Positions 3,903 through 41,862 of a stretch of DNA of 64,000 bases are shown in pieces; the first letter of the stretch is position 1; every line of letters begins with the position of its first letter. The notes under the pieces are model-generated. The model made no database searches and was not told the DNA's origin. It saw only the letters and a program-made list of their open reading frames with translations. Position numbers and translations under genes: made by a program. Source of the DNA: Acidimicrobiia bacterium (GTDB taxonomy: Bacteria > Actinomycetota > Acidimicrobiia > Spongiisociales > ZC4RG35); contig CBDCGI010000022.1 of NCBI GenBank assembly GCA_965216725.1, forward strand, positions 64,438 through 128,437, in the 5' to 3' direction.

Positions 3903-3954
3903 CTCCATGGTCGGAGAACTCGTGCTCCAGGCTTATGATGGCAATGCCGTCAAT

Positions 3955-4092
3955 ATCGAGCGGGAGAGATCCGGTCGTTGACCGGGCGCCGAAGGGGCAA
4001 CACCTCCCGGAAACTCTCAGGCATCTGGACCGTTCGATCAGGCAAGCTGGAGGAGACGACAGCTGGGAGGGCAGGAGTCCACAAGGAAGCGC
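3955..4092 (+). promoter_or_regulatory. glycine riboswitch (single aptamer) in the gcvP leader
   Basis: 3961-4035 reads GGAGAGatCc...GGgCGCCGAAGGGGCAAcacctcccggAAaCTCTCAGGCAtctGGACcG. These are the conserved GGAGAG, CGCCGAAGGrGCAA and CTCTCAGGCA..GGAC blocks of the glycine aptamer. An aaggaag RBS sits 7 nt before the gcvP ATG at 4093. No convincing second aptamer. Confidence 0.6.
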
Positions 4093-6980: not shown

Positions 6981-8354
6981 GTGAAATTCAAAGGGCAGCT
7001 GAAATTCCCGGATGTCGACCATCCGGGCATACCGGTCGCGCTCCTGCTGGACGACATGCACCTCGAGGTTCGTGTCGACGAGGAATCTGTCGGCCGCTGG
7101 TCGCTCATCGACGTCGAGGCCAGCCGATTGATCGCGGCCGCGTTTGAGGTGAATCTCGGGGGCGAGGAAATCACTTTCATAGCTGAAGAGCCCCTCGACT
7201 TCGCGTACAAAGGCGTGGAGCACATGGCCGAGACCTGGGCCCGGGTCAAGGCCCACTCCCTTCCTCGCCGTGGCGTGGTCATAAGAAAGTCCCGGAAAGA
7301 CACCATTCCATCGCGTCTCGGCGAGCTTCGTTCAGCGGTGCTCGAGGAAATGGACGAGTCCACGCCTGCCGCTGCCCGGCATGTGACTCCGGCACCCGGG
7401 CCGATTGAGGCCAGAGTCTCTGAACTGCGGGATAGAGCCCGCCCCTCAGAAGTGGGTCGGGACAGTGAGGAAAAGGCGCCGGAGATGCCGGGAGCGCCGC
7501 GAGCAGACGAGCCGCCTAAGAAGCCAGTGCTGATCCCCGGTCCTGGGATCGTTACCGCCGTCGGAAGCACAAGCGCCTCCGAGAAGCCCGACTCGGGCCC
7601 GCAGGCCCAGGCTCCCGCCGTCTCAGTCGTGTCAGAGGCGGAGAAACCGCCGACTGAGATGGAGCCTGTCTCGGAACCAGAGCTGAAAGAAATCCCGGCC
7701 ACCGACGTCGAGAGCGAGCTGGCAAGTGCGCCCGAGTCACCTAGTGAGGCTGAGGTCGAGCCGCAACCGGAGACAGCTGAAGCGCAGCCTGAGACAGAGC
7801 CCGTGGTCGAGGCGGTGAGTGCGCTCGACACAGAGCCCGAGGCGGTAATCGAGCCCGAGGCCGCAATCGAGCCCGCGGCGACGGAGGAACTGACGGAAGA
7901 CACCCTGGCGGCAGTCGACGGGGCAGCACAGTCAGATCATGAGCCGGCCGCCCACGTCGAGGATGAGGCTGCCGAAGAGCCCGATCGAGCGAGTCGAGCC
8001 GATCAGGATTCTTCCGAGATTGAGCTACCGCAAGAGACCAAAGAGCTGATTGGTACTCCGGCGGGTTCGGACGAAGGTCTCTTCGTCGACCTCGGGAACT
8101 ACGAGGGCGAGCAAGATGACGAATCTCCTCCGGCCGCCGACGAAGACAGAGCTCCCGATGGGCCGCCGGACAAAGAGCCGGCCCTGGTTGGCAGCGAGGT
8201 AGAGAAATCGGGGCTCCTCGGCGCGGTTCGTTCTGCGTTCGGGCGCAATCGGGTGCCGCACGAACACGAATTTGTGGATGCTCCCGGAGGCATGGGCCTT
8301 ACCCGCCAGATCTGTGTCGAGTGCGGGCATATCTCAATCAGATCCGACGACTGA
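6981..8354 (+). CDS. hypothetical protein: about 110-aa N-terminal globular domain, about 300-aa acidic Pro/Glu/Ala-rich disordered region with EPEA(V/A)IEP-type repeats, C-terminal CxxC..H tail
   Basis: Long ORF co-directional with gcvP. The 18-nt gag/gcc tandem repeats also give an antisense Ser-rich ORF (6845..7903), which is rejected. No family recognised. Confidence 0.5.
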   Translation: MKFKGQLKFPDVDHPGIPVALLLDDMHLEVRVDEESVGRWSLIDVEASRLIAAAFEVNLGGEEITFIAEEPLDFAYKGVEHMAETWARVKAHSLPRRGVVIRKSRKDTIPSRLGELRSAVLEEMDESTPAAARHVTPAPGPIEARVSELRDRARPSEVGRDSEEKAPEMPGAPRADEPPKKPVLIPGPGIVTAVGSTSASEKPDSGPQAQAPAVSVVSEAEKPPTEMEPVSEPELKEIPATDVESELASAPESPSEAEVEPQPETAEAQPETEPVVEAVSALDTEPEAVIEPEAAIEPAATEELTEDTLAAVDGAAQSDHEPAAHVEDEAAEEPDRASRADQDSSEIELPQETKELIGTPAGSDEGLFVDLGNYEGEQDDESPPAADEDRAPDGPPDKEPALVGSEVEKSGLLGAVRSAFGRNRVPHEHEFVDAPGGMGLTRQICVECGHISIRSDD

Positions 8355-8393: not shown

Positions 8394-9440
8394 GTGTCCG
8401 TCGTTCTCCGACCTGTGATCCTGTCTGGTGGAGCCGGTACCCGGCTCTGGCCACTGTCCACCGAGGCAAAGCCGAAGCAATTCCTGGAACTCGTGGGAGA
8501 GCCGCTGATGGATCAAGCGCTCAGGCGTTTGTCCCATGTGCCCGGCGTGGCGGGACCGGTGATCGTGACGGGAACCGATCACGTGGGTCTGGTCGTGGCT
8601 GCGTCGTCCCGTGCCGGCGTCGAGCCTCATCTCACGATCGTCGAGCCGGAAGGTCGTAACACGGGACCCGCCGTGGTTGCCGCTGCGCTGGCTTCAGATC
8701 CGAATGACGTCCTCGTGGTGCTTCCCGCAGACCATCTCATCGAAGACCGCGATGGCTTCGGTCGTCTGGTTGAACAGTCCTCATCACTCGCTTTTGATGG
8801 AATGTTGGTCACCTTCGGAATCGTCCCCACAAGGGCCGAGGTCGGCTACGGCTACATCGAGGTTGGGGAGGAATTGAGCGTTGGTCATCGGGTGTCGAAG
8901 TTCACCGAGAAACCCGATCTGGAGACGGCTGAAGTCTTTGTAGCCGGCGGCCGTCACCTCTGGAATTCGGGAATCTTCATGTTTCGGGCAGATGTGCTTG
9001 TCGACGAGGCAAGAGCGGTGGCACCCACTCTTTCGGAAGCAGTCGAAAGTGCAATGCAACGCCCGACTGATGGAGTGCTCAGGCTCGATGCTCGATTCGC
9101 CTCGGCCCAGTCGATTTCGCTCGACCATGCGGTCATGGAGAAGACTGAAAAGGCGGCGGTGGTTCCTGCCGACATTGGCTGGTCGGATCTCGGCTCGTGG
9201 GAATCGGTGTGGGAGGCCGCTGAGAAAGACGCTTCCGGAAACGCCGTGATGGGCGACGTAGTCACCATTGGCGTATCCGGCTCACTCGTGAGAGCTGAAG
9301 GACGGCGCGTTGCCCTCGCCGGAGTGAACGATGTCATCGTCGTGGAGACCGACCACGCCATCCTCGTCGTGGGTAAGCAGGCTTCTCAAGAGGTGAGGGA
9401 GCTGGCGGCATTAGACCGCCCGGTCGAAGACCAGCGATGA
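8394..9440 (+). CDS. mannose-1-phosphate guanylyltransferase (GDP-mannose pyrophosphorylase, no PMI domain)
   Basis: N-terminus VILSGGAGTRLWPLS is the nucleotidyl-transferase G-rich loop. 348 aa. It has a C-terminal left-handed beta-helix-like tail. Confidence 0.8.
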   Translation: MSVVLRPVILSGGAGTRLWPLSTEAKPKQFLELVGEPLMDQALRRLSHVPGVAGPVIVTGTDHVGLVVAASSRAGVEPHLTIVEPEGRNTGPAVVAAALASDPNDVLVVLPADHLIEDRDGFGRLVEQSSSLAFDGMLVTFGIVPTRAEVGYGYIEVGEELSVGHRVSKFTEKPDLETAEVFVAGGRHLWNSGIFMFRADVLVDEARAVAPTLSEAVESAMQRPTDGVLRLDARFASAQSISLDHAVMEKTEKAAVVPADIGWSDLGSWESVWEAAEKDASGNAVMGDVVTIGVSGSLVRAEGRRVALAGVNDVIVVETDHAILVVGKQASQEVRELAALDRPVEDQR

Positions 9441-9748
9441 AACGCCGCTGGATGGGGGTGGTGATGGTCATGGCTCTGAGCGTGATGGCATGTTCCGCCT
9501 CCGTGGCTGAGAACGCGGAGGGCCGTCAGATCTATCTCGCGCTTTGTGCCCGCTGTCACGGTGAGGGGTTGGAGGGGTTGGTCGGACCGCCGCTTGGTCC
9601 GGATTCGAACGCGGCGATTCGTCCGGACGAATTCCTCGTGTTCACCATCGAGAACGGCCGCGGCAGGATGCCTTCGTTCAAATCAGTCCTCGACGATGAC
9701 CAGGTCGACCGTTTGGTCGCCTATGTCAGGGAGGTACAGGAAGGGTGA
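9437..9748 (+). CDS. class I c-type cytochrome (signal peptide, CxxCH haem site)
   Basis: The hydrophobic leader MKRRWMGVVMVMALSVMAC is followed by CARCHG (CxxCH) and a downstream GRMP Met-ligand region. The ATGA start overlaps the stop of the upstream gene. Confidence 0.7.
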   Translation: MKRRWMGVVMVMALSVMACSASVAENAEGRQIYLALCARCHGEGLEGLVGPPLGPDSNAAIRPDEFLVFTIENGRGRMPSFKSVLDDDQVDRLVAYVREVQEG

Positions 9749-10674
9749 ACGAGCTGCTCCAATCGCTTGACCTTCATCCGGTGAGGATTCCTCTCCGTCA
9801 CCGGTTCCGAAGAGTCGACCATCGTGAGGCGGTGCTGATTAAAGGGCCTGCTGGCTGGGGCGAGTTCTCCCCTTTCCCCGACTATCCGCCTCAGGTGACC
9901 ACGAGATGGCTGGCGTCTGCGTTGGAGTCCGCTTGCGGCCGACTTCCCGACGCAGGGCGTTCCGAAGTCCTGGTAAACGTTACGGTGCCGTCTGTCGACC
10001 CGATGACCGCGAAGCGCCTCGTCATCGAATCGGGTGCGGCCACGGCCAAGGTCAAGGTCGGGGAGCCGGATCAACCCGAGGCCTTCGAGCTCGAGCGTGT
10101 CACCGCCGTACGTGAGGCGCTCGGACCGGACGGAAGGATTCGTATCGACGTCAACGGGGCCTGGGATGTCGAGACCGCCTACCAGCGGATACAAAGCCTG
10201 TCACATCTCGGCTTGGAGTATGTGGAGCAGCCGGTCGCATCGATTGACGAGATGGTCGAGCTGAGAGGTCGAGTGGACGTGGCCTTGGCGGCCGACGAGT
10301 CGGTTCGCCTCGAAGCTGACCCGTTGCGGGTGGTGGAGGCTGGGGGCGCGGATTTCCTCGTGCTCAAGGTGCAGCCAATGGGGGGTGTGGCTCGAGTCGT
10401 CGATCTCGCGGCTCGCGCCCAGATTCCGGTCGTGATCAGCTCTGCTCTAGAGACGTCTGTTGGCCTCTACTCAGGTCTGCTTGCTGCGTCCCTGGTAACT
10501 CCAGCGGGCACTGCCTGTGGTCTGGGGACAGCAACACTCCTTTCGGGTGATGTCACACATCAATCTCTCCTGCCTCGGAATGGGAAGCTGCGCAATCCGG
10601 CGTCCCGAGCCGGACGTCGACATGCTGGAGCGGTTGCGACCCGAGAAGGGCCACGAGGCGGAGATGCTGCGTAA
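9745..10674 (+). CDS. menC: o-succinylbenzoate synthase (enolase superfamily); 3' end probably frameshifted, see findings
   Basis: GTG start overlaps the cytochrome c stop. N-terminus VRIPLRHRF..WGEFSPFPDY is typical of actinobacterial OSBS. The annotated C-terminus is Arg/Ala/Gly-rich, typical of out-of-frame translation. Confidence 0.75.
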   Translation: MNELLQSLDLHPVRIPLRHRFRRVDHREAVLIKGPAGWGEFSPFPDYPPQVTTRWLASALESACGRLPDAGRSEVLVNVTVPSVDPMTAKRLVIESGAATAKVKVGEPDQPEAFELERVTAVREALGPDGRIRIDVNGAWDVETAYQRIQSLSHLGLEYVEQPVASIDEMVELRGRVDVALAADESVRLEADPLRVVEAGGADFLVLKVQPMGGVARVVDLAARAQIPVVISSALETSVGLYSGLLAASLVTPAGTACGLGTATLLSGDVTHQSLLPRNGKLRNPASRAGRRHAGAVATREGPRGGDAA

Positions 10675-31794: not shown

Positions 31795-32667
31795 TCACAT
31801 GACGTCGAGATACAGCGTCTGGGTGGTCCGACCCAGGAAGCGCTCCTGGTCCCAGAGTGTCCCTGACGCGATCCCACGGCCGTTGGATGCGTAGTTTGAT
31901 TCGCCATCTAGGCAGACCCACTCGCCCGCAGGCAGTCGGTTGATGTTTATCGATAGGTCGGGGTTCATGAACAGCCACTCATCGGACGTTGTGAGCCTCG
32001 ACACCCCGTTTGCGAAATCGGCGACTGCGACCAGTCGCTGGAGCGGGGTTATCTCGGTGCCTGCGACAATTGGCGATTTCAGCCTGAACCAGACCACACC
32101 GGATCCGGCAGAATGGAAGCCACCTTCGACTTCGCGTATCTCAACCGCGTCGCGATGGAACATCGGCACGCCTGGCGGGCCCACTCCCCAGGTCGAGGTC
32201 TCCGCTGGAGCAAGGCTGTCTGGAGGCGTGAGCCGCGGAGTCTGTTCGCTGGCCGCGGCCGGCATTCCCACGTCGGCGATGCGCAGCCTCTGCACGTGGG
32301 CTCGGCTCAGCTCGGCACCGTTTGAGAGCACCCTCGCCTCGATGACCTGTATCCGTTTCCCCTCTCTGATGACCCTGGTCTGAATCTCCAGCTCTACCAG
32401 GGGAACCACCCGGAAGATCTCTAGGGTGAAGCGCGAAATCTGCATCTCGGTCAGAGAAGGCACCGCATCGACATGAGCGGCGACCAGCGCCGCCAGCGCG
32501 CCTCCGTGTTGACCCTCCTCGTACCAGCCGGCGTTGGCAAGCCTGCTCGATCGGTAGATGTTGGGGTCGGCTGTCGGGTAATAGACGGGTGAGCCGGGCT
32601 CCACTCTTCGCGGGAGCCTAACGGTGGGACCATTGGACATTGCCACAACCATGGGTTGGTTTAGCAT
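31795..32667 (-). CDS. acyl-CoA thioesterase (TesB-like double hot-dog family)
   Basis: 290 aa. Two hot-dog halves with thioesterase-II-like spacing. Weak sequence-level recognition. Confidence 0.55.
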   Translation of the reverse strand: MLNQPMVVAMSNGPTVRLPRRVEPGSPVYYPTADPNIYRSSRLANAGWYEEGQHGGALAALVAAHVDAVPSLTEMQISRFTLEIFRVVPLVELEIQTRVIREGKRIQVIEARVLSNGAELSRAHVQRLRIADVGMPAAASEQTPRLTPPDSLAPAETSTWGVGPPGVPMFHRDAVEIREVEGGFHSAGSGVVWFRLKSPIVAGTEITPLQRLVAVADFANGVSRLTTSDEWLFMNPDLSININRLPAGEWVCLDGESNYASNGRGIASGTLWDQERFLGRTTQTLYLDVM

Positions 32668-33521
32668 CTTCGGCTGTGACGACAGAAGCAGCGGAGCGCG
32701 GAGAAAGCGCTACTGATGCCATAAAGCGCATTGGCGCCCCGCTGGTCATCGGATCGGTGCTCGGCTCGACCTTGGGCATCGTCATCGCCCAGTTCCTGGA
32801 CGACTTGGGAGATGGGATTCTTGCTGAGATCCTGGGCGGCGACGCTGTTCTCTACGCCAATCGAGTCGAGATCACCGGTGCCGAAGATCTCGCCTGGGCC
32901 GGTGGCTTCGCCCTCTGCCTCATCGTCGGGTTCATTGCACTCTTCTCCTATCCAACTACGCGTGATCGCGGAATAGGAAGGCTCACCTTGCTTTGGGCGA
33001 TCCTTCACATTCTTCGACAGGCCTTCACCCAGGCATTGCTACTTCCCTTGGACGACAAGTCCGATCTGGCCCTGGCATACAACTCGCTGGACGAGCCTCC
33101 ACCAGGGCTCGACGTCGTGGTCGGCGTCGGAGGAGGGCTGGGCCTGCTGCTCATCGGCCTGGCGGCGGCCGCGGCATTCCTCGCATTCACCCCGCATCGG
33201 AGGCTGATCTCAACCGGGCGGCGTCGCTTGACCTTCGTGGTTTGGCTGGCTCTGCTACCAGCGGCCATTTCCATCTTCCTGGCTGTCCCCTTCTTTGCTC
33301 CCGACGAGGGCAGTGGCGTGGTGACGTCGCTCCCCTTGACTGTGTTCATGTTCGTCGCCACTGTTGCGGCTGCTCCCGGTACGACCACGGTTGTCGGGCC
33401 GGACGAGCCGCGGGAGACAACAATGCCTTGGGGTCTGGCGGCGACCTTGGTGGTTGCTTTGGTGTTCTACGTCTTTGTTCTCCGTGGCGGCATCCAGGTC
33501 GATCCCACCCAATGGGGGTGA
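32640..33521 (+). CDS. integral membrane protein, unknown function
   Basis: Six or more hydrophobic segments. Start uncertain; it overlaps the divergent thioesterase start. The 3' end overlaps the mogA start. Confidence 0.45.
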   Translation: MPQPWVGLASSAVTTEAAERGESATDAIKRIGAPLVIGSVLGSTLGIVIAQFLDDLGDGILAEILGGDAVLYANRVEITGAEDLAWAGGFALCLIVGFIALFSYPTTRDRGIGRLTLLWAILHILRQAFTQALLLPLDDKSDLALAYNSLDEPPPGLDVVVGVGGGLGLLLIGLAAAAAFLAFTPHRRLISTGRRRLTFVVWLALLPAAISIFLAVPFFAPDEGSGVVTSLPLTVFMFVATVAAAPGTTTVVGPDEPRETTMPWGLAATLVVALVFYVFVLRGGIQVDPTQWG

Positions 33522-34000
33522 CGGCAGGCAAAGTGCTGGTGATCACCGTGAGCGACGGTGTCAGCAGGGGAACTCGGGAAGACGGTTCGGGTGACGCTCT
33601 TGCCGAGATCCTCTCACTAGCTGGGTATGAGGTGGGACGGGTCGTGGTCCCCGACGAGAAGCAGAAGATCATCGAGGCAATCAAGGAAGGCGCGGATCAT
33701 TCCGTGATCATCACCACCGGCGGGACGGGGTTCGGGCCACGCGACGTCACTCCGGAAGCGACCATGGAAGTTCTGGAGCGCGAAGCTCCCGGACTGTCTC
33801 ACCTCATCACGGCCCGAGGGCTCACCTCGACCCCGTATGCCGCCTTGTCGAGGGGAAGGGCAGGCACTTTCGGATCCAGTTTGGTGCTCAACGTCCCCGG
33901 ATCTCCCAAAGGCGCGGTCGAAGCGGTCGAGGCCGTACTTCCCCTGTTCTCACATACGCTCGATCTCCTCAGGGGCGACACCGAGCACAAATCTGGCTAG
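33512..34000 (+). CDS. mogA: molybdopterin adenylyltransferase (MogA/MoaB family)
   Basis: Start re-chosen at MGVTAGKVLVITVSD. GGTG motif (IITTGGTGFGPRD). 162 aa. Confidence 0.8.
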   Translation: MGVTAGKVLVITVSDGVSRGTREDGSGDALAEILSLAGYEVGRVVVPDEKQKIIEAIKEGADHSVIITTGGTGFGPRDVTPEATMEVLEREAPGLSHLITARGLTSTPYAALSRGRAGTFGSSLVLNVPGSPKGAVEAVEAVLPLFSHTLDLLRGDTEHKSG

Positions 34001-34053
34001 CGGGCTCGGATTCACTACCGTTCTCGTGCTTCGCTGCACCAGATGGGAGGCCT

Positions 34054-34608
34054 ATGAAGATCCAGCAGCAATTTGTCATCGACCGCAGCCCGGAAGCGGT
34101 TTGGGATTTCTTTCAGGACGTCCCCTCGGTCGCACAGTGTCTGCCCGGGGCCGAACTACTCGACCAGGGTGACGACGGTTCATACGAGGGGAAGCTGTCC
34201 GTGAAGCTGGGTCCTATGACTGCCGCGTTCGAAGGAAAGGCAACCATCGATCCCAACCCTGAGGAAAGGACCGCCACCATCACTGGCAAGGGCGTCGACA
34301 AGCAAGGCGGTTCGAGGGGCCAGGTGAAGGTTGTCTACGACATTCGCCCCGTTGAAGCCGGCTCCGAGGTCTCAGTCGACGCCGATGTGACCCTTTCCGG
34401 TCCCGTCGCACAATTCGGCCGGACCGGGCTGATCAACGAGATGTCGAAGCGGTTGATAGGAGAGTTCGTCGATTGCCTCGAAGCAAAGCTCGAGGCGGGA
34501 ACGGTCGAAGAAGCGGCAGAGATATCCGCATCCGAAGTTCGGGGGATCTCGCTGTTCTTCTCATCTCTCTGGGCTGCCATCAAGAGACTCTTCAAGAGAA
34601 GCGATTGA
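34054..34608 (+). CDS. SRPBCC-fold protein, CoxG (carbon monoxide dehydrogenase subunit G)-like
   Basis: 184 aa. The N-terminal approximately 140 aa match the CoxG/polyketide-cyclase-like fold (FVIDRSPEAVWDFFQD..). C-terminal amphipathic tail. Confidence 0.65.
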   Translation: MKIQQQFVIDRSPEAVWDFFQDVPSVAQCLPGAELLDQGDDGSYEGKLSVKLGPMTAAFEGKATIDPNPEERTATITGKGVDKQGGSRGQVKVVYDIRPVEAGSEVSVDADVTLSGPVAQFGRTGLINEMSKRLIGEFVDCLEAKLEAGTVEEAAEISASEVRGISLFFSSLWAAIKRLFKRSD

Positions 34609-34982
34609 TGAAGTCGAGATTGCTCGTGGTTGCGGTAGCGGCCTCAGCGATGCTCGTCTCTTGTGGTGGCGGTGGCGATGGCGAAGAGTCCATCGAAGGA
34701 GAGAGCGTGGTAGTCGACCTTTTCGACAACCGCTATGAGTACACCGAGATCGTGATCCCTGTCGGAGGCGCAGTCACGTGGTCTGGCGCAGGCCGCAACC
34801 CGCACAACGCGGTCGCGGCTGACGGCTCCTGGACCACAGAGGCAGTATTTGGGAGTCTCGATCAGTTCGACGGTGACGACGCGATGCTCACCTATGACAC
34901 GCCTGGCGTGTATGCGTTCTTTTGCACCTATCACGGCAACGCCGAAGGAGATGGGATGGCCGGCACGCTCACCGTCGGCTAG
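34608..34982 (+). CDS. cupredoxin (type-1 copper, plastocyanin/pseudoazurin-like) lipoprotein
   Basis: Signal peptide plus lipobox LVSCGGG. C-terminal ligand loop FFCTYHGNAEGDGMAG (Cys-x2-His-x7-Met) with an upstream His. TGATG overlap with the upstream stop. Confidence 0.7.
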   Translation: MKSRLLVVAVAASAMLVSCGGGGDGEESIEGESVVVDLFDNRYEYTEIVIPVGGAVTWSGAGRNPHNAVAADGSWTTEAVFGSLDQFDGDDAMLTYDTPGVYAFFCTYHGNAEGDGMAGTLTVG

Positions 34983-34992
34983 AGACCGTGAG

Positions 34993-36645
34993 ATGATCAG
35001 GCCGCGATTGGCGATTGCCGCCACAGGGGTGTTGGTCGGTATCGCCGCATGCGCCGGGCCGCCCACAGGGGATCCTTCGCCGGCGGCCGTCGGCGAGCAT
35101 ACGACCGAGTCGCCGCGGGAGTGGACCGGCACCACGAGGGAAGTCCCGGGCACATATCCAACGATTCAATCAGCGGTGGACGCCGCTGACTCGGGTGACA
35201 TGGTCCTGGTCGATTCCGGCGTCTACCGGGAGGCGGTAACTGTGACCACGCCGGGGATCACTCTTCGAGGAGTCGACCGGAATGAAGTGATCATCGACGG
35301 CGAGTTCAGTCGCGACAACGGTGTGGCCGTTCTGTTCGCCGACGGCGTGTCCGTGGAGAACCTGACGTCTCGTAACAACAGAATCAACGGGTTCTTCTGG
35401 ACCGGGGTCAGGGGCTTCCGGGGGTCCTACCTCACCGCGATCAACAACGGCGACTATGGCATCTACGCCTTCGACTCCAGCGACGGCCTGTTCGAATACT
35501 CCTACGCATCCGGCTCGCCGGATGCGGCGTACTACATCGGGCAATGCAATCCGTGCGAATCTGTGATCACGGACTCCGTTGGGGAGTGGAGTGGCCTCGG
35601 CTACTCAGGAACCAATGCATCGACTGAGATCTTCATCGTCAACAACGTCTTCAGATTCAACGGTGCCGGCGTTGCCCCCAATTCGCTGGACTCCGAACTG
35701 CTCCCACCCACCGAGAACGTCGTGGTGTCAGCGAACCTTATTCACGACAACGGCTACCGAGACTTCCCACACAAGACGGCCCAGTGGGCCACCCAAGGCA
35801 ACGGAGTGGTCCTGGCCGGCGTAAGGAACTCCAGCGTCACCAGGAACAGGATCGTCAATCACCCTCAGAGCGGGGTCGCGGTGATACCCAACGTCGATGA
35901 CAACGTGTACATGTCGAGTGGCAACGTCGTTGCAGGCAACGTCATCGCAGGGTCGGGGCTCGGTGATCTCACGTTGACAGGCCCGTCCGGGAGTGACAAC
36001 TGCTTCGAGGAGAATCAGTTCGATCACACGATGCCTCCTGCATTGCAACTCAAACAGCCTTGTGACGGCCCTCGGCTACCTGCTCTCTTTGAGATGGGCT
36101 CATTCTCGGGTTTCTTCGGCCGCTTCCTCGAGGCCGAGCTGGGTCTGGACTCGGATGTCTTCTACGGCGACATGCCCCATCCGCCGGATCAGACACCAAT
36201 GCCGGAAGGGGCGGACGCGCCCGTGTTTCCGGCAGTGGACGTATTTGCCGCTGCCAAGCCTGATGTCGACCTGCTCGCGGCTCCGGTGCCCGTTTCAGGT
36301 CTCGAAGACAATCAACAGAAAGGGTTCAATCTGATGGGAGTCAGTTTTGCGTCGACAATCGGCGGTCTCCTCGGCCTATACGCCTACATCCTCCCTTTGG
36401 TCCTGTATGCGGCGTGGGTGGTGATCGCGGTCTGGGAGATCATCAAACGCGACGACATGACACGAGGTGCCGGGATCGGGTGGATGCTGGCCATCCTCGT
36501 TGTGCCATTCCTCGGTGTCATCGCCTATTACATACTCGGTGGATCCAGAATCCCGGCCCCATATCGGTGGGTGCTCCTGGCTGGGGGGCTGGGGGTCTAT
36601 GCCTTGTTCCTTCTGGCCGGTCTGTTCGCAGCCGGTGTCGTCTAG
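34993..36645 (+). CDS. right-handed parallel beta-helix repeat protein (NosD/pectin-lyase-fold-like) with C-terminal PLDc_N-type membrane hairpin
   Basis: Signal peptide or lipobox (IAACAG). Repeated NNxI/VxNxxG PbH1-like turns (SRNNRINGF, VNNVFRFNG, TRNRIVNHP, AGNVIAGSG) and a CNPC motif. The last approximately 90 aa (YILPLVLYAAWVVIAVWEIIKRDDMTRGAGIGWMLAILVVPFLGVIAYYILGG) match the PLD-nuclease N-terminal two-helix membrane motif. Confidence 0.6.
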   Translation: MIRPRLAIAATGVLVGIAACAGPPTGDPSPAAVGEHTTESPREWTGTTREVPGTYPTIQSAVDAADSGDMVLVDSGVYREAVTVTTPGITLRGVDRNEVIIDGEFSRDNGVAVLFADGVSVENLTSRNNRINGFFWTGVRGFRGSYLTAINNGDYGIYAFDSSDGLFEYSYASGSPDAAYYIGQCNPCESVITDSVGEWSGLGYSGTNASTEIFIVNNVFRFNGAGVAPNSLDSELLPPTENVVVSANLIHDNGYRDFPHKTAQWATQGNGVVLAGVRNSSVTRNRIVNHPQSGVAVIPNVDDNVYMSSGNVVAGNVIAGSGLGDLTLTGPSGSDNCFEENQFDHTMPPALQLKQPCDGPRLPALFEMGSFSGFFGRFLEAELGLDSDVFYGDMPHPPDQTPMPEGADAPVFPAVDVFAAAKPDVDLLAAPVPVSGLEDNQQKGFNLMGVSFASTIGGLLGLYAYILPLVLYAAWVVIAVWEIIKRDDMTRGAGIGWMLAILVVPFLGVIAYYILGGSRIPAPYRWVLLAGGLGVYALFLLAGLFAAGVV

Positions 36646-36648
36646 GGC

Positions 36649-37671
36649 ATGAGCGATAGCGGTGTTTCTCGACGCGATCTCCTGAAGAAGGTCGGCCTCG
36701 GCGGCGCAGCATTCATCGGTGGCACGGTCGTGGGCCGCACCGTGCGTCACGCCGAGCCGGCGCTGGCCGATGAGCCCTACTCCTCCGGACTTACCGGGTC
36801 GGCGCACGGCCCAACCGGCGACTTGATCTACATGGGTCATCATTCGTCGCCCGCCGGTCTGGGCCCAGACGCTCTTGATTCGCTCACTTTCCCTCCCGCC
36901 CCCGATGGGAAGCGCCCCGGCACCAATCGGGAAATCGAGATGCGGGTGGAGGAGCGGCTCATCGAGATCGCTCACAGAGTCCATTTCGAGGCTTGGACCT
37001 ACAACGGGTCGGTGCCGGCGCCGATCATTCGAGCCACCGAAGGCGACCTCCTCCGAATCCATTTCACGAACCCCACGGCCCATGCCCACAGCCTCCACTT
37101 TCACGGCTCGCACCGCCCTGACCAAGATGGCTGGGAGCCAGTCCCTCCTGGTGGCGAGACGATCTACGAGATCGAGGCCGGGCCAGCTGGGGTCCACCCC
37201 TTCCACTGTCATACGACTCCGCTGGCAGAGCACGTCGCCCGAGGCCTGTACGGCATGCTGATTGTGGATCCCGTGGGAGGTCGTGGACCAGCACAGGAGG
37301 TTGCGCTGCTGCTCTCTGGTTTTTCGAGCGCCGATTTGGGTACCAACGGAGTTGTGGCTTGGAACGGCGTGTCCGGTTACTACCACCAGCACCCGATCAA
37401 GGTCGAGGTGGGGGAGCGGGTCCGGGCGTATGTGGTCAACATGGTGGAACACGAGCCTGTCGCTTCCATTCACCTCCACGCTCAGACGTTCGACGTGTTC
37501 CCGGCTGGCATGGGGAGTGAACCTGCCTTCCGTGAGGACACCATCACGTTGGGCCAGGGTCAGCGCGCAATGATCGAGTTCACGTTGCCGCAACTGGGCC
37601 GGTATATGTTTCATCCCCATCAGCACTGGCTGGCCGAGCGAGGTGCGATGGGGTGGTTCGCAGCCGTATAG
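36649..37671 (+). CDS. two-domain multicopper oxidase (small-laccase/NirK-like) with Tat signal
   Basis: Twin-arginine leader SRRDLLKKVGLGGAAF. Copper ligand motifs HFHGSH, HPFHCHTTPLAEHVARGLYGM (HCH...H...M) and HLHAQ. 340 aa. Confidence 0.75.
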   Translation: MSDSGVSRRDLLKKVGLGGAAFIGGTVVGRTVRHAEPALADEPYSSGLTGSAHGPTGDLIYMGHHSSPAGLGPDALDSLTFPPAPDGKRPGTNREIEMRVEERLIEIAHRVHFEAWTYNGSVPAPIIRATEGDLLRIHFTNPTAHAHSLHFHGSHRPDQDGWEPVPPGGETIYEIEAGPAGVHPFHCHTTPLAEHVARGLYGMLIVDPVGGRGPAQEVALLLSGFSSADLGTNGVVAWNGVSGYYHQHPIKVEVGERVRAYVVNMVEHEPVASIHLHAQTFDVFPAGMGSEPAFREDTITLGQGQRAMIEFTLPQLGRYMFHPHQHWLAERGAMGWFAAV

Positions 37672-37682
37672 GTTGGTCTGGG

Positions 37683-38549
37683 ATGGTCAGGTTCCGTCGT
37701 AAACCCACAGGTCCTGGTGAGGTAATCGATCGTCGTGGAGCAGGGCCGGGCGGGATGATGAAGGCCGGTCTCGGCGGGGGAGGTTTGATCGGCGTGGTCA
37801 TTCTGCTCCTCCTCGTGTTCAGCGGAGGTGGATCCGACTTGGGCGACATGCTCGATCAGTTTGATCCCGCCACTGCCAACGGGCAGCAGCATCCGATCGA
37901 CCCTGCCTCTGATCGCGACGCAGACCTTGTTGTCTTCCTGGGCGATGTCCTCGCCGATAGCCAGGCGATGTGGGCTGAGATCTTCCAATCGTCCGAGCTC
38001 AGCTATCGGCCGGCTCACCTAGTCGTCTTCGACGGTTTCACCCAATCCTCGTGTGGCGGGGCACAGGCCCAGTCGGGTCCCCACTACTGCCCGGTCGACG
38101 AGCAGGTGTACATGGACCTGGAGTTCCTCGAAGAGCTGCAGAATCGATTTGGGGCGCATGGCGACACCGCCCAGGCCTACATCCTGGCGCATGAGGTTGC
38201 CCACCACGTCCAGAATCAGCTCGAGGTGATCTCCGCGGTGGATGAGATACGGCGCACCGACCCGGGTAGCGCCAACGAGGCGAGCATCGCACTCGAATTG
38301 CAGGCCGACTGCTTTGCCGGGGTTTGGCTTTCCACCCTGCGACTCGGCACGTCGGCGGCCGTCTTGGAGGACGATGATCTGGAGGAAGCGCTCAACGCTG
38401 CTGCGGCTGTGGGCGACGACGCCATCCAGTCCCAGACCACCGGTCGGGTCAACCCTGAGAGTTGGACCCACGGCAGCTCTGAACAGCGCTACCGATGGCT
38501 GAAGACCGGCTTCGACACCGCCGACCCGTCTGCCTGTGACACCTTCTAA
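37683..38549 (+). CDS. YpfJ-family neutral zinc metallopeptidase (membrane-anchored)
   Basis: N-terminus MVRFRRKPTG..IDRRGAGPGG followed by a Gly-rich TM segment, matching the YpfJ N-terminal signature. HEVAHH HExxH motif. Confidence 0.75.
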   Translation: MVRFRRKPTGPGEVIDRRGAGPGGMMKAGLGGGGLIGVVILLLLVFSGGGSDLGDMLDQFDPATANGQQHPIDPASDRDADLVVFLGDVLADSQAMWAEIFQSSELSYRPAHLVVFDGFTQSSCGGAQAQSGPHYCPVDEQVYMDLEFLEELQNRFGAHGDTAQAYILAHEVAHHVQNQLEVISAVDEIRRTDPGSANEASIALELQADCFAGVWLSTLRLGTSAAVLEDDDLEEALNAAAAVGDDAIQSQTTGRVNPESWTHGSSEQRYRWLKTGFDTADPSACDTF

Positions 38550-39799
38550 GGTCCGGCCTGGCTCTCGGACTTCGTTTCCGCCTCGGTCCGGAGCCAACCG
38601 AACGCCGAGGTTGCAACGAGCGCTGCAGACGAGGCAAGCGCAGCTGTGACGCTTATGGTTCGGGCGACCCAACCCAGCCCGGGCCCGATCGAGAGCTCGC
38701 CGAGCGATTGCGCCTGCCTGACTCCTGAAAGAACCGTTGCTCTCACACTCTCCTCGGAGTGATGATTGACCCAGGTGGTGATTAGTGGGTCGAGGACGTT
38801 GCGGGCCGCCGCCACGAGCAGGACTGCGGCTGCACCAAACAGGAAAGAAGGGGCAAAAGCGAGACCCAGCAAGGCAAGCCCGATGACGGACACCAGCGCA
38901 ACGATGGCCCTGGCAAGGGAGCGGTCATCGTCGGTGTCAACGCGGCGGCGGGCGACCTCAGAGCCGAGGATCGACAACCCCATCCCTGCGGCTCGGATCA
39001 GGCCAAACCACCCCACAAGTCCGATGCCCAACAGCACCGGGAGCGTGTACCCGTCGATTAGATGGATCGTCCACAGACGGTCGTACCCCTCAGCTGCTCC
39101 GCCCCAGATGAACATGATGATCACGATCAGCCAGAGCGATCTTCGACCTCGAACCACCCTGTAGGCCGTTTGCATCGACGTGACGAAGGCCTTCCAGGTC
39201 TCACGCTCTCCTCGGGGAGCGCGGCGAAAGTGCTGCTCCGGCATGACGACCGCCAGGACGGCGGCTAGCGAAACCATCATGGCTCCGCCCACGACGATGG
39301 GGACCGAGACGTCGTCGCGACCGAGGTAGACGGCCGCGGCCACGGCAACTAGCGACGCCCCGAGATTGAACTGCTCGCCGCGCAGATAGATCGCCCCGAG
39401 GCTTAGTCCTCTTTGGGTACGAGCGGTTTCGGTTTCGGAGGCCACCCACGCCTCATACGCCCCGCTGGTGAACGTGGCACCTATCCCAAACAGGACCTGT
39501 GAAAGGAGGACGGCTCCATACTCGGGGACCGACCCTTCGAGGATGAAGCCTGCGCCGATGAGGGCGAAGCCGGCCACAACCGACCACTTCCGGCTGTAGA
39601 CATCGGCGACGATTCCCGTAGGGATCTCAAAGAGGAAGTACGAGACCTCGAGGACTGTGCCCACCAGGACCAGCTGGAAGGGATCCAGGCCAACAACAGT
39701 GACTTGATACACGAGATTCAGGGTCACGATCAGCGACCAGGCGAAGCCGTCGATGGCCTGAGCGAACAGGTAGACCGGGTACGGCTTGAAGGAGGGCAC
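38546..39799 (-). CDS. MFS transporter
   Basis: 417 aa. Twelve hydrophobic segments with a D-R/K-x-G-R-like loop between TM2 and TM3. Confidence 0.75.
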   Translation of the reverse strand: MPSFKPYPVYLFAQAIDGFAWSLIVTLNLVYQVTVVGLDPFQLVLVGTVLEVSYFLFEIPTGIVADVYSRKWSVVAGFALIGAGFILEGSVPEYGAVLLSQVLFGIGATFTSGAYEAWVASETETARTQRGLSLGAIYLRGEQFNLGASLVAVAAAVYLGRDDVSVPIVVGGAMMVSLAAVLAVVMPEQHFRRAPRGERETWKAFVTSMQTAYRVVRGRRSLWLIVIIMFIWGGAAEGYDRLWTIHLIDGYTLPVLLGIGLVGWFGLIRAAGMGLSILGSEVARRRVDTDDDRSLARAIVALVSVIGLALLGLAFAPSFLFGAAAVLLVAAARNVLDPLITTWVNHHSEESVRATVLSGVRQAQSLGELSIGPGLGWVARTISVTAALASSAALVATSAFGWLRTEAETKSESQAGP

Positions 39800-39854
39800 G
39801 AGTGGCCCAGCTAAGCATGGGTAGTGGTTGTCTCGAAGCGCTCAGGGGATCGGG

Positions 39855-40297
39855 AAACCCTCTGCGGAGCCGGGGGCCAGCCGCACTTATCGGGCCTTGC
39901 CCCCTCCGTCGCCTGCGGCGCCACCTCCCCCAACGGTCGCTCCGCTCCCTGGGGGAGGAAATAGTTGCTCTCTTCTCCCCCCGGCGAACGAAGTGAGTAC
40001 ATGTCTCCCCCTAGCGAACGAAGTGAGCGTTGGGGGGAGTACGGCGAAGCCGGGAGGGGGGCGGGCCGCACTTATCGGGCCTTGCCCCCTCCGTCGCCTG
40101 CGGCGCCACCTCCCCCAACGGTCGCTCCGCTCCCTGGGGGAGGAAATAGTTGCTCTCTTCTCCCCCTAGCGAACGAAGTGAGCGTTGGGGGGAGTACGGC
40201 GAAGCCGGGAGGGGGGCGGGCCGCACTTATCGGGCCTTGCCCCCTCCGTCGCCTGCGGCGCCACCTCCCCCAACGGTCGCTCCGCTCCCTGGGGAGG
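39855..40297. repeat. non-coding tandem direct repeat, about 154-bp unit, about 2.6 copies; the first copy carries an internal 32-bp duplication
   Basis: Unit starts (gccgcacttatcgggccttgcccc...) at 39880, 40066 and 40220. Copies 2 and 3 are near-identical over more than 75 bp. The unit contains the inverted repeat GGGGGAG-n17-CTCCCCC and a cgaacgaagtgagcgttgg sub-motif. All six-frame ORFs here are low-complexity repeat artefacts. Confidence 0.8.
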
Positions 40298-40310
40298 GGG
40301 GCCGGCAGTC

Positions 40311-40700
40311 TCAACCGTTTCCCAGAGACACCTCGGCAACCTGGCCGTCACGAATCAGAAAACCGCGGATTTCCCCGTCGGCGGCGATCAGATAGAGCCA
40401 TTCCGGGTCCAGGGCACGCACGACGTCCTCCTCGGAGGGGATGGCGAGACCGTCGGGGTGGGAATGAAAGACACCGCTGAGCGTCCAACCTTGGCTTTCG
40501 GCATGGCGAAAGGCGCCAAAATGCTCGTCTGGGTCGATCGTGTAGGAGGTGGGCGAGGGTCGGCTGTTGGTGAGGAGGTAGGCGAATCGGACGTTGGAAT
40601 CGCCGTCGGAGGCGATCAGGCCGCAGCACTCGTCGGGCGCGCACAAGTCAGCATGGGCGAGGATCGCTTGCCGAATCTGGTCAGGAAGCCGAGGAGGCAC
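40311..40700 (-). CDS. JAMM/MPN+ family zinc isopeptidase (Mec+/CysO-cysteine peptidase-like)
   Basis: 129 aa. Conserved Glu (PDECCG) and JAMM motif HSHPDGLAIPSEED (H-x-H-x7-S-x2-D). Confidence 0.75.
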   Translation of the reverse strand: MPPRLPDQIRQAILAHADLCAPDECCGLIASDGDSNVRFAYLLTNSRPSPTSYTIDPDEHFGAFRHAESQGWTLSGVFHSHPDGLAIPSEEDVVRALDPEWLYLIAADGEIRGFLIRDGQVAEVSLGNG

Positions 40701-41862
40701 GGTCGACGTTCCCCGCGGGCACGCAGCTCTGGTCGTACTCGACGATCCTGGGTGGCCGGTCCGCGTCCGAGCACGCGGGGCAGTTCGGGTCGCGGTCGAT
40801 TTGAACCGTGTTGAACTCCTGCTCGAGGGCGTCGTAAATCAACAGGCGCCCTACCAGCGTGTCACCGATTTCGAGCAGCGCCTTGATGGCCTCCATCGCT
40901 TCTATGGAGCCGATGATTCCGGGTAACACTCCGAGCACGCCTGCCTCTGCGCACGATGGTGCGATCTCGGGAGGAGGGGCCTCAGGGAACAGGCATCGAT
41001 AACAGGGCCCCTGGTAGGGATGAAAGACCGAGACCTGGCCTTCGAACCTGAAGATCGCCCCGTGGACTACCGGGATCTTGAGGTGTAGCGAAGCGTCGTT
41101 GACAAGGTAGCGGGTTGGGAAGTTGTCCCCGCCGTCGACTACGAGGTCGTAGCCGCCCATTATCTCCAAGGCATTGTCGGCCGAGAGCCGGTCGGTGTGA
41201 GTCTCGACCTTGACGTCGGGGTTGAGGGCAGACAAGGTTTCCCGGGCAGATTCGGTCTTGTTCATCCCGACCCGGTCGAGATTGTGCAGGACCTGGCGTT
41301 GCAGGTTGGTCGCGTCAACCACGTCGTAGTCGACGATCCCGATCGTGCCCACACCTGCCGCAGCCAGGTAAAGAGCAGCGGGCGAGCCCAGCCCGCCCGC
41401 TCCCACCAAGAGAACCCTTGAGCCAAGAAGGCGGGTTTGTCCCTCTTCGCCTACCTCAGGCAGCAGGACGTGTCTCGAGTAGCGGGTGCGCTGGTCGGCG
41501 GTCAAGCCCTCATCGGTGGACCATCGCAGGCCTTCTGTCTTCCACTGCTCGAACCCTCCCGCCAGGGACGCCACATCCTCGTATCCCATGGCCTTCAGGG
41601 TTTGCGCAGCAAGCGCTGAGCGGTGCCCGGCCGCACAGTAAGCCACGATCGGCGTGGAGGTGTCGGGTATGACCGTGGCGACATCCCGCTCGATCAAGCC
41701 ACGAGGAATCAATCTGGCTCCGGGTATCGCGCCCTGCGAGTGCTCGTCTGCCTCGCGCACGTCGAGCACCAGGACCTCGTCCATCCGCTGCGACAGCTGT
41801 GTTGGTGTGATCTCTACGATGGCGGCCTTGGCGGCGTCGACAAGCTCGCGGTAGGAAGTCAT
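40681..41862 (-). CDS. rhodanese-ThiF/MoeB E1-like sulfurtransferase/adenylyltransferase (MoeZ-like, reversed domain order)
   Basis: Start re-chosen at MTSYRELV. The N-terminal rhodanese has active-site YCAAGHRS. The MoeB/ThiF domain has the GAGGLGS nucleotide loop and Zn motif CYRC..CPAC. The start overlaps the aceE stop. Confidence 0.8.
   Translation of the reverse strand: MTSYRELVDAAKAAIVEITPTQLSQRMDEVLVLDVREADEHSQGAIPGARLIPRGLIERDVATVIPDTSTPIVAYCAAGHRSALAAQTLKAMGYEDVASLAGGFEQWKTEGLRWSTDEGLTADQRTRYSRHVLLPEVGEEGQTRLLGSRVLLVGAGGLGSPAALYLAAAGVGTIGIVDYDVVDATNLQRQVLHNLDRVGMNKTESARETLSALNPDVKVETHTDRLSADNALEIMGGYDLVVDGGDNFPTRYLVNDASLHLKIPVVHGAIFRFEGQVSVFHPYQGPCYRCLFPEAPPPEIAPSCAEAGVLGVLPGIIGSIEAMEAIKALLEIGDTLVGRLLIYDALEQEFNTVQIDRDPNCPACSDADRPPRIVEYDQSCVPAGNVDRASSAS

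Follow-up and report, generated by a model that had tools for sequence, protein, structure and literature searches.

Two-domain multicopper oxidases (MCOs) are regarded as laccase-like or metal-oxidising enzymes that work alone. The only case found of a two-domain MCO with an extra cupredoxin of its own is Nmar_1354 of Nitrosopumilus maritimus (9CCK), an enzyme of the archaeal MCO4 lineage in which a pendant type 1 (T1) copper cupredoxin lies 13.5 Å from the T1 copper of the oxidase and oxidation of NH2OH is coupled to reduction of O2 (PMC11761707). The present analysis concerns a cupredoxin, a right-handed beta-helix protein with a PLDc_N membrane anchor and a two-domain MCO that are encoded side by side in a 64,000-nt stretch of an Acidimicrobiia genome (GCA_965216725.1, contig CBDCGI010000022.1, positions 64,438 to 128,437 of the forward strand). 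This whole stretch is referred to as the window, and coordinates are given within it unless a related locus is named.

Other described relatives of the window MCO have partners of a different kind. The closest solved structure, 3GDC from Arthrobacter sp. FB24, is 57% identical to LMCO3 of R. opacus, whose gene adjoins copper-resistance genes (PMC8556283), and archaeal MCO1, which has leucine at the axial position, adjoins a Zn/Fe permease and responds to copper limitation (PMC7785015). The copper nitrite reductases (NirK) share with the window enzyme a fold of two cupredoxin domains, predicted to be trimeric in the window enzyme as well, with the T1 copper in domain 1, and their T1 site is fed by a small redox protein, either a pseudoazurin or azurin donor or a tethered cupredoxin or haem domain (2DV6, 4AX3, 6THE), as is proposed for the window enzyme. 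The small laccases (SLAC, type B) are, like the window enzyme, two-domain MCOs of actinobacteria exported by twin-arginine translocation (Tat), and they are trimers, as the window enzyme is predicted to be. NosD, for its part, resembles the window beta-helix protein in being an exported right-handed beta-helix encoded beside a multicopper enzyme.

A Conserved Three-Gene Unit

In the window, the three genes follow one another on the + strand. The gene for the cupredoxin lipoprotein (34608-34982, 124 residues) is separated by 10 nt from that for the beta-helix/PLDc_N lipoprotein (34993-36645, 550 residues), which is in turn separated by 3 nt from the MCO gene (36649-37671, 340 residues). A preliminary description of this DNA, made from the sequence alone, had placed them in the middle of a compact run of five co-directional genes at 34054-38549, with a CoxG-like gene ahead and a gene for a YpfJ-type peptidase behind. 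The run is present on the + strand as refined from ORFs (open reading frames) and junctions, the described gaps of 3 to 11 nt and the stop/start overlap match the measured junctions, and all of the earlier gene calls (CoxG, cupredoxin, beta-helix, Tat-exported two-domain MCO, and YpfJ) are upheld by Pfam and NCBIfam.

Conservation was assessed in the best 80 loci, at 50-71% identity, from 581 MCO relatives recovered in a scan of one genome per GTDB species. These loci come mostly from metagenome-assembled genomes of Acidimicrobiia, with some Nitriliruptoraceae and two Caldilineaceae. Presence was counted by tblastn with the window proteins over informative loci only, and neighbouring genes in the relatives were called with a simple codon-usage caller, so that their start sites are approximate. 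Raw clustering of ORFs across loci was dropped because conserved shadow ORFs in the GC-rich DNA swamped it.

In all 72 informative loci, which span Acidimicrobiia, Nitriliruptoraceae, and the two Caldilineaceae (Chloroflexota) genomes, the gene immediately upstream of the MCO gene, in the same orientation, is that of the beta-helix protein, and 68 of 69 loci have the cupredoxin. In 28 loci, each from its own species, cupredoxin and beta-helix/PLDc_N protein form one continuous reading frame with the cupredoxin at the N-terminus, as confirmed by Pfam matches to PF00127, PF13229, and PF13396 within single ORFs. These fused-type units have upstream intergenic regions of their own, often have opposite-strand genes downstream, and can therefore be regarded as autonomous operons of two or three genes. 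Around the beta-helix gene, the cupredoxin and the MCO are the only conserved neighbours in the 80 loci, all others being variable. The conserved unit is thus one of three genes, encoding cupredoxin, beta-helix/PLDc_N protein, and MCO.

Co-conservation of all five genes had been set beforehand as a test, and it holds for these three proteins but fails for the outer two. YpfJ was found in none of the 66 related loci with at least 1 kb of sequence downstream of the MCO, and CoxG is confined to one clade, being present in 34 of the 36 loci whose cupredoxin has its own gene but absent from all 24 of the fused type. The idea of the five genes as a conserved unit is largely refuted, and that they act as one functional operon in the window is very improbable. 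Tight spacing, common direction, and the stop/start overlap between CoxG and cupredoxin make co-transcription likely here, and CoxG keeps its place beside the unit throughout most of the nearest clade; however, in relatives it follows MogA and XdhC in a molybdenum-cofactor context, its product has no signal peptide and would therefore reside on the other side of the membrane, and YpfJ lies with an adjacent transporter gene at a variable insertion point.

Some loci depart from the usual layout of the unit. In a single locus, L015 (5786-7989), the beta-helix gene comes immediately after CoxG and no cupredoxin is detectable; the cupredoxin gene may have been lost or have diverged, or the assembly may be at fault. 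In Nitriliruptoraceae and Caldilineaceae, a stand-alone PLDc_N protein of ∼95-100 residues with three helices is encoded between the beta-helix and MCO genes (L051, L055, L057 at 7651-7953, L060, L061 at 7672-7959, L062, L064, L065, L067, L071, and L072). This protein and the C-terminal anchor of the beta-helix protein are paralogues, which hints at oligomerising membrane modules.

The Multicopper Oxidase

The MCO is composed of a PF07732 domain (residues 103-208) and a PF07731 domain (residues 239-338), matched with E-values of about 1e-23 to 1e-25, preceded by a Tat signal that passes TIGR01409 (nt 36649-36768). Besides this signal it carries no lipobox or other anchor. The T1 ligands H147, C187, and H195 are found in the N-terminal domain only, where L200 takes the axial position, and the ligands of the trinuclear cluster are H150, H152, H186, H188, H275, H277, H322, and H324; the copper motifs are encoded at nt 37087-37104, 37204-37248, 37471-37479, and 37612-37620. 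The presence of a full set of T1 and trinuclear ligands had been chosen in advance as a test of the MCO assignment, and the set is complete. All copper ligands are invariant in an alignment with 24 homologues, and across the wider set the four HxH motifs are conserved as HFH (81/81), HCH (81/81), HLH (80/81), and HPH (78/81), the misses being truncations at contig ends. With the register taken from 9CCK, the axial residue is leucine in 79 of 81 sequences and methionine only in the two Caldilineaceae.

Because the T1 site lies in the N-terminal domain and the C-terminal HPH motif lacks a cysteine (FHPHQH in domain 2, with HCH in domain 1), the protein is assigned, from its ligand pattern, to the type C two-domain MCOs of Nakamura's classification, as used in PMC3192119. 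The preliminary description had offered NirK and small-laccase types as examples, and neither is borne out: SLAC enzymes have their T1 copper in domain 2, whereas that of the window MCO is in domain 1. Among proteins of solved structure, the closest in sequence are 3gdc (1e-61), 7rab (3e-53), and 9cck (5e-45). An AlphaFold2 (AF2) model with a predicted local distance difference test score (pLDDT) of 79.8, exceeding 90 in the core and disordered at residues 1-59, finds the same three structures as its best fold matches, with template modelling (TM) scores of 0.84, 0.78, and 0.76, respectively, followed by NirK cores, some of which have a cupredoxin or haem domain tethered to them.

A NirK-type nitrite reductase that receives electrons from a pseudoazurin-like cupredoxin would account for the strong fold matches to NirK cores, for the T1 copper lying in the same domain, and for the annotation of several homologues by JGI as 'nitrite reductase (NO-forming)'. 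It is nevertheless extremely unlikely. The NirK model TIGR02376 matches the MCO at 2e-22 but reaches 80 bits where 296.3 is required, and its match is limited to residues 92-211, in domain 1. NirK possesses a mononuclear type 2 (T2) copper held by three histidines and reduces nitrite, whereas the eight histidines of the four HxH motifs in the window MCO make up a trinuclear cluster of the O2-reducing kind. The nearest solved proteins named above are all oxidases, and no denitrification genes occur nearby.

The comparison with 3GDC bears on a second alternative. 3GDC has the same ligand pattern as the window MCO, including the axial leucine, and enzymes of its type, their plasmid-borne relatives and archaeal MCO1 are likewise Tat-exported or otherwise secreted two-domain proteins; in contrast to the window unit, they are partnered by a metal permease, with no cupredoxin or beta-helix protein, and are ∼40% identical to the window MCO. 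The unit could on this basis serve homeostasis of copper or another metal, with the MCO as a cuprous or ferrous metallo-oxidase in the manner of CueO or archaeal MCO1 that detoxifies or mobilises the metal outside the membrane, and with the cupredoxin and the beta-helix protein as metal-binding or chaperone proteins. The location of the ∼40% identical plasmid MCOs in metal-transport and resistance islands agrees with such a role, as do the genes beside LMCO3 (PMC8556283) and MCO1 (PMC7785015) and the CxPC motif of the beta-helix protein, which is kept in at least 90% of representatives of its wider family. This explanation is nonetheless judged unlikely, as no P-type ATPase, CopZ-like protein, or ZIP transporter was found beside the unit in the 80 loci, the chromosomal context in the window is a housekeeping one, a Met-rich insert is absent from the MCO (2.6% Met), and the T1 site of the cupredoxin is a complete one of the electron-transfer kind, not that of a chaperone. 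Nor was a shared operator for a metal regulator found upstream; a k-mer search for one ahead of the 28 fused-type operons gave nothing convincing.

The plasmid loci (L081-L084, from Nocardia, Rubrobacter, Rhodococcus, and Deinococcus) have a consistent organisation of their own, in which the gene of a 3GDC-like MCO stands immediately before that of a ZIP-like metal transporter (∼395 residues), often with a small Rieske protein next, and with DtxR-type regulators, Nramp proteins, and P-type ATPases encoded nearby. This layout recalls the oxidase-permease pair of metal uptake and archaeal MCO1 with its permease.

Nmar_1354 resembles the window MCO in being a two-domain enzyme with a T1 site, a trinuclear cluster and an extra T1 cupredoxin partner, and the two share 35% identity and align with TM scores of 0.69-0.76. 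The cupredoxin of Nmar_1354 is, however, its own C-terminal domain, whereas the window MCO ends with domain 2 at residue 340, without a pendant cupredoxin, and its putative partner is a separate lipoprotein or, in relatives, is fused to the beta-helix. Nmar_1354 also differs in its axial methionine and in having no beta-helix/PLDc_N partner, and its substrate, NH2OH, has no known relevance in these heterotrophic lineages.

The Cupredoxin

The cupredoxin matches PF00127 (Copper-bind) with 32.2 bits against a cut-off of 21.2 (1.5e-7), and its translation contains a lipobox, LVSC. Its copper ligands H66, C106, H109, and M117, the last three encoded within nt 34923-34958, are invariant in 71 sequences, and its closest solved relatives are amicyanins, which are electron carriers (E=2e-7). 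It falls below the NCBIfam equivalog cut-offs for amicyanin (30.8 against 110.2), plastocyanin (30.9 against 87.9), and halocyanin (20.8 against 93.8), and, though a T1 cupredoxin, it belongs to none of these named subfamilies. The earlier reading of this gene as encoding a T1 cupredoxin lipoprotein is borne out by the Pfam match, the lipobox and the four invariant ligands, and the view that a cupredoxin and a neighbouring two-domain MCO make up a copper redox module outside the cytoplasm is supported.

The Beta-Helix/PLDc_N Protein

The beta-helix protein begins with a lipobox, IAAC, in its translation and continues with a right-handed beta-helix over about residues 48-340 (nt 35134-36012; PF13229 Beta_helix, 9e-13), a Pro-rich linker, and a PLDc_N membrane anchor (PF13396, 4e-8; residues 452-549, nt 36346-36639) that the preliminary description had missed. 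AF2 predicts transmembrane helices at residues 452-485, 492-515, and 522-549. The CNPC motif noted earlier, of the form CxPC, is confirmed at C185-C188 (nt 35545-35556) within a conserved YGIYAFD...GQC-N-P-C segment. Residues conserved in 72 diverse orthologues are C185, C188, C337, C357, D161, D164, D177, E198, and D233.

The beta-helix was upheld along with its CNPC motif, whereas the NosD label attached to it was not. The Pfam NosD model PF05048 matches marginally (24.7 bits; cut-off 23.6), without any one stretch that passes by itself, and the more specific family model TIGR04247 gives 38.3 bits against a cut-off of 300, over residues 58-129 only. The best NCBIfam match is instead TIGR03805 (1.5e-20), which is also under its cut-off. 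No NosD appeared at E≤1 in a profile search of PDB sequences and, together with the low TIGR04247 score, this means that the NosD label reflects a shared fold only. The AF2 model of the protein (pLDDT 67.5; 74-91 at residues ∼41-150 and 48-90 in the later turns) was also compared by Foldseek, which returned generic CASH beta-helices such as AlgE4 epimerase, PL6 lyases, RbmB, and tailspikes at TM scores of 0.3-0.45, with no NosD among the top 50 matches. The window protein further differs from NosD in its PLDc_N anchor, in the cupredoxin fused to it in relatives, and in having no NosFY ATP-binding cassette or NosL partner.

These observations bear on the earlier suggestion, which remains unsupported, that the protein acts like NosD in copper-centre maturation. 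Under that explanation, the cupredoxin and the beta-helix/PLDc_N protein would form an assembly factor that loads copper into the Tat-exported apo-MCO, a role with which the strict pairing with one MCO clade, the conserved Cys pairs, and the weak PF05048 matches (in the window protein and in 60 of 92 family representatives) would be compatible. It is considered distinctly improbable: only about 70 residues match TIGR04247, NosD is not among the best fold or profile matches, none of nosF, nosY, nosL, or nosZ was found among the conserved neighbours of the 80 loci, and close MCO relatives (3GDC and the plasmid clade) exist without such a factor. The complete and invariant T1 site of the cupredoxin, moreover, suits electron transfer better than copper delivery.

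The family to which the beta-helix belongs is large, comprising at least 4,367 proteins at E≤1e-10 and 414 clusters at 50% identity for E≤1e-30, and in source annotations its members all bear hypothetical or domain-only names. Among 92 diverse representatives, a cupredoxin domain was found in 24 and PLDc_N in 15. Homologues in haloarchaea, Streptomyces, and Hymenobacter had no MCO or redox neighbours and, as the plasmid MCOs conversely lack a beta-helix protein, the pairing of the two is specific to the clade represented in the window.

The haloarchaeal homologues lie on megaplasmids (L085 5899-7104; L086 5995-7184) and are 43-44% identical to the bacterial protein, a value unusually high between domains of life that suggests horizontal transfer. 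They have no PLDc_N anchor, cupredoxin, or nearby MCO and lack all four conserved cysteines, which are therefore not universal in the wider family.

More distant homologues, with 25-27% identity over about 250 residues, are the TIGR03805-type proteins of proteobacteria. In Ruegeria, Pseudomonas, Roseateles, and Neptunomonas, they belong to a conserved operon that encodes, in order, a dihaem cytochrome c, a dihaem peroxidase of the cytochrome c peroxidase (CCP)/MauG type, a tetratricopeptide repeat protein, and the beta-helix protein (L088 1055-5281; L091, L092, and L093 at about 2000-6400), with genes for AraC regulators and aldehyde dehydrogenases nearby. Like the window protein, these beta-helices are paired with, and often C-terminally fused to, a small electron-transfer domain, here cytochrome c, and accompanied by a terminal oxidant enzyme; unlike it, they rely on haem rather than copper, have no PLDc_N anchor, CxPC motif, or conserved acidic residues, and are themselves uncharacterised. 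By analogy, this operon may be a haem-based parallel to the copper arrangement, though the likeness is suggestive only.

Proposed Mechanism

The proposal that we favour, and to which we give an even chance of being correct, is that the cupredoxin, the beta-helix/PLDc_N protein, and the MCO constitute a membrane-tethered extracytoplasmic oxidase in a single-membrane actinobacterium. The domain composition, the complete copper ligands, the strict co-occurrence of the genes, and the recurrent cupredoxin-beta-helix fusion are the observations from which it departs. The oxidase would be situated on the outer face of the cytoplasmic membrane, where the Tat-exported MCO would form a trimer and reduce O2 to water at trinuclear clusters between its subunits. 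The T1 copper of a type C enzyme sits in a NirK-like peripheral domain, where protein donors dock, and in the window MCO this peripheral N-terminal site would be fed by the T1 copper of the cupredoxin. The beta-helix/PLDc_N protein would hold the soluble MCO and the cupredoxin together at the membrane, and it may also bind or oxidise the primary electron donor. We infer in this way a physical complex, an electron path from cupredoxin to T1 to cluster, and O2 as the final acceptor; any role of the beta-helix beyond tethering, and any substrate, would stand on the same conditional footing.

Tethering fits the predicted topology of the components, in that the MCO is unanchored, both of its partners are lipoproteins, and the beta-helix protein has three transmembrane helices in addition. 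The pendant cupredoxin of Nmar_1354 and the NirK enzymes with tethered cupredoxin or haem domains may be taken as precedents by analogy, and NH2OH would on the same analogy be one candidate substrate of a tethered oxidase.

Several points weigh against this proposal. MCOs normally oxidise their substrates directly at the T1 copper, and the MCO therefore need not depend on the cupredoxin as its donor. No cytochromes or dehydrogenases that could supply the cupredoxin with electrons were found within 8 kb in the 80 loci; motif scans over this distance for c-type cytochromes, as well as for P-type ATPases and CopZ-like proteins, yielded nothing except for one isolated CxxCH. In the 72 orthologues, the beta-helix shows no invariant histidine or methionine that might form a metal site, and its model, which is only moderately confident at the score given above, resembles polysaccharide-acting enzymes and no redox protein. 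Finally, co-occurrence among loci that are mostly from related Acidimicrobiia partly reflects common descent, but the occurrence of fusions and of examples in Chloroflexota counts against mere inertia as its cause.

It is also conceivable, if rather unlikely, that the beta-helix is no scaffold but the subunit that oxidises the substrate in a class of extracytoplasmic oxidase not recognised before. Its acidic YGIYAFD...D-x3-Y segment and thioredoxin-like C-x-P-C motif would then form a site that takes electrons from an extracellular donor and passes them through the fused or adjacent cupredoxin to the type C MCO and on to O2, and the cytochrome c-fused beta-helices in operons with CCP/MauG would be the haem counterpart of the same design.

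Whichever function the beta-helix has, its association with a two-domain MCO appears not to have been described. A literature search covering 7RAB, the combination of beta-helix, cupredoxin, and MCO, the MCOs of Acidimicrobiia, PLDc_N, and operons of beta-helix and MauG returned no description of this module. The components are known, as is the principle that a cupredoxin can supply electrons to a copper enzyme of two domains; what is apparently new is an obligate partner joining a cupredoxin, a beta-helix, and a PLDc_N anchor across a large bacterial clade, a partner that is missing in the plasmid relatives, whose MCOs are about 40% identical. The lineages that carry the module (Acidimicrobiia, Nitriliruptoria, and some Chloroflexota) are abundant groups of soil and sediment. 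Were the tethered electron-transfer chain to prove true, it would represent a new route by which single-membrane bacteria assemble an extracellular O2-reducing oxidase, and it would supply the first functional context for the PLDc_N membrane module and the beta-helix family. For annotation, the MCO should not carry the name 'nitrite reductase (NO-forming)', given by some sources, nor is there justification for naming the beta-helix protein after NosD.

Neighbouring Genes

Upstream of the conserved unit, the co-directional run is longer than the five genes first described. It begins with a gene for a multi-helix membrane protein of 293 residues without a Pfam match (32640-33521, +), which overlaps by 10 nt the gene for a MogA/MoaB-like molybdopterin protein (33512-34000, +), and is bounded by a divergent thioesterase gene (32667). 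This pair at 32640-34000 is kept ahead of CoxG in 34 close relatives only, and in this genome it probably belongs to the same transcription unit as the module. Scans for promoters and terminators gave results at chance level only, and Rfam had no match in 32000-41000.

The CoxG-like gene (34054-34608, +) encodes an SRPBCC protein of 184 residues that matches PF06240 (COXG) with 66.2 bits against a cut-off of 22.2 (3e-18) and overlaps the cupredoxin gene by 1 nt at TGATG. The protein is cytoplasmic and has a hydrophobic or amphipathic C-terminal tail, and its distribution across the related loci marks it as a clade-specific add-on to the unit. In the relatives, its gene follows MogA, sometimes with an XdhC/CoxI-like gene between the two (L040-L045, L058). 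No genes for CO dehydrogenase or another molybdenum hydroxylase were seen among the window ORFs scanned (∼30 of 51 called genes, all large ones included), and a link of CoxG to a Mo/Cu CO dehydrogenase was accordingly dropped. The molybdenum-cofactor genes near the module are MogA and MoeZ only, with XdhC in relatives. The copper module thus sits in a molybdenum-cofactor and sulfur-carrier neighbourhood, without a molybdenum enzyme among the scanned genes of the window.

Downstream of the MCO gene, after 11 nt, lies the gene for the YpfJ-type protein (37683-38549, +), a membrane-anchored zinc metallopeptidase whose earlier identification is confirmed by NF050010 (296.1 bits against a cut-off of 250) and by an HEVAH motif of the HExxH type, with PF04228 matching at 2e-85. 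An alternative GTG start at 37653 would create a 19-nt overlap with the MCO gene; the ATG at 37683 is preferred because the Pfam match begins at residue 9 of that form. The next gene, on the - strand, encodes a major facilitator superfamily (MFS) protein (38546-39799) and, like YpfJ, is present in none of the 66 loci. YpfJ is accordingly a bystander outside the conserved module. In close relatives, either variable genes or, with nothing in between, the JAB, MoeZ, and AceE genes come after the MCO, whereas in the window these three come only after YpfJ, the MFS gene, and a repeat-bearing spacer (JAB and MoeZ-like genes at 40311-41862), which places YpfJ and the MFS gene at a variable insertion point.

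The spacer between the MFS and JAB genes holds, at 39819-40294, three direct copies of a unit of 136-155 nt, with no further copies within the window. The copies at 40004-40139 and 40159-40294 are 100% identical, and that at 39819-39954 is 72% identical. Lying at the edge of the YpfJ and MFS segment that has no counterpart in the relatives, the repeat may mark an insertion boundary or be an assembly artefact.

A further gene that is missing from the window occurs at the corresponding position in 16 close relatives, where a protein of 284 residues without a Pfam match is encoded on the same strand directly after the MCO, ∼60-120 nt downstream (L004, L005, L007-L012, and others, including L020 at 9143-9997). 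In other relatives, its place is taken by a protein of 178 residues encoded on the opposite strand.

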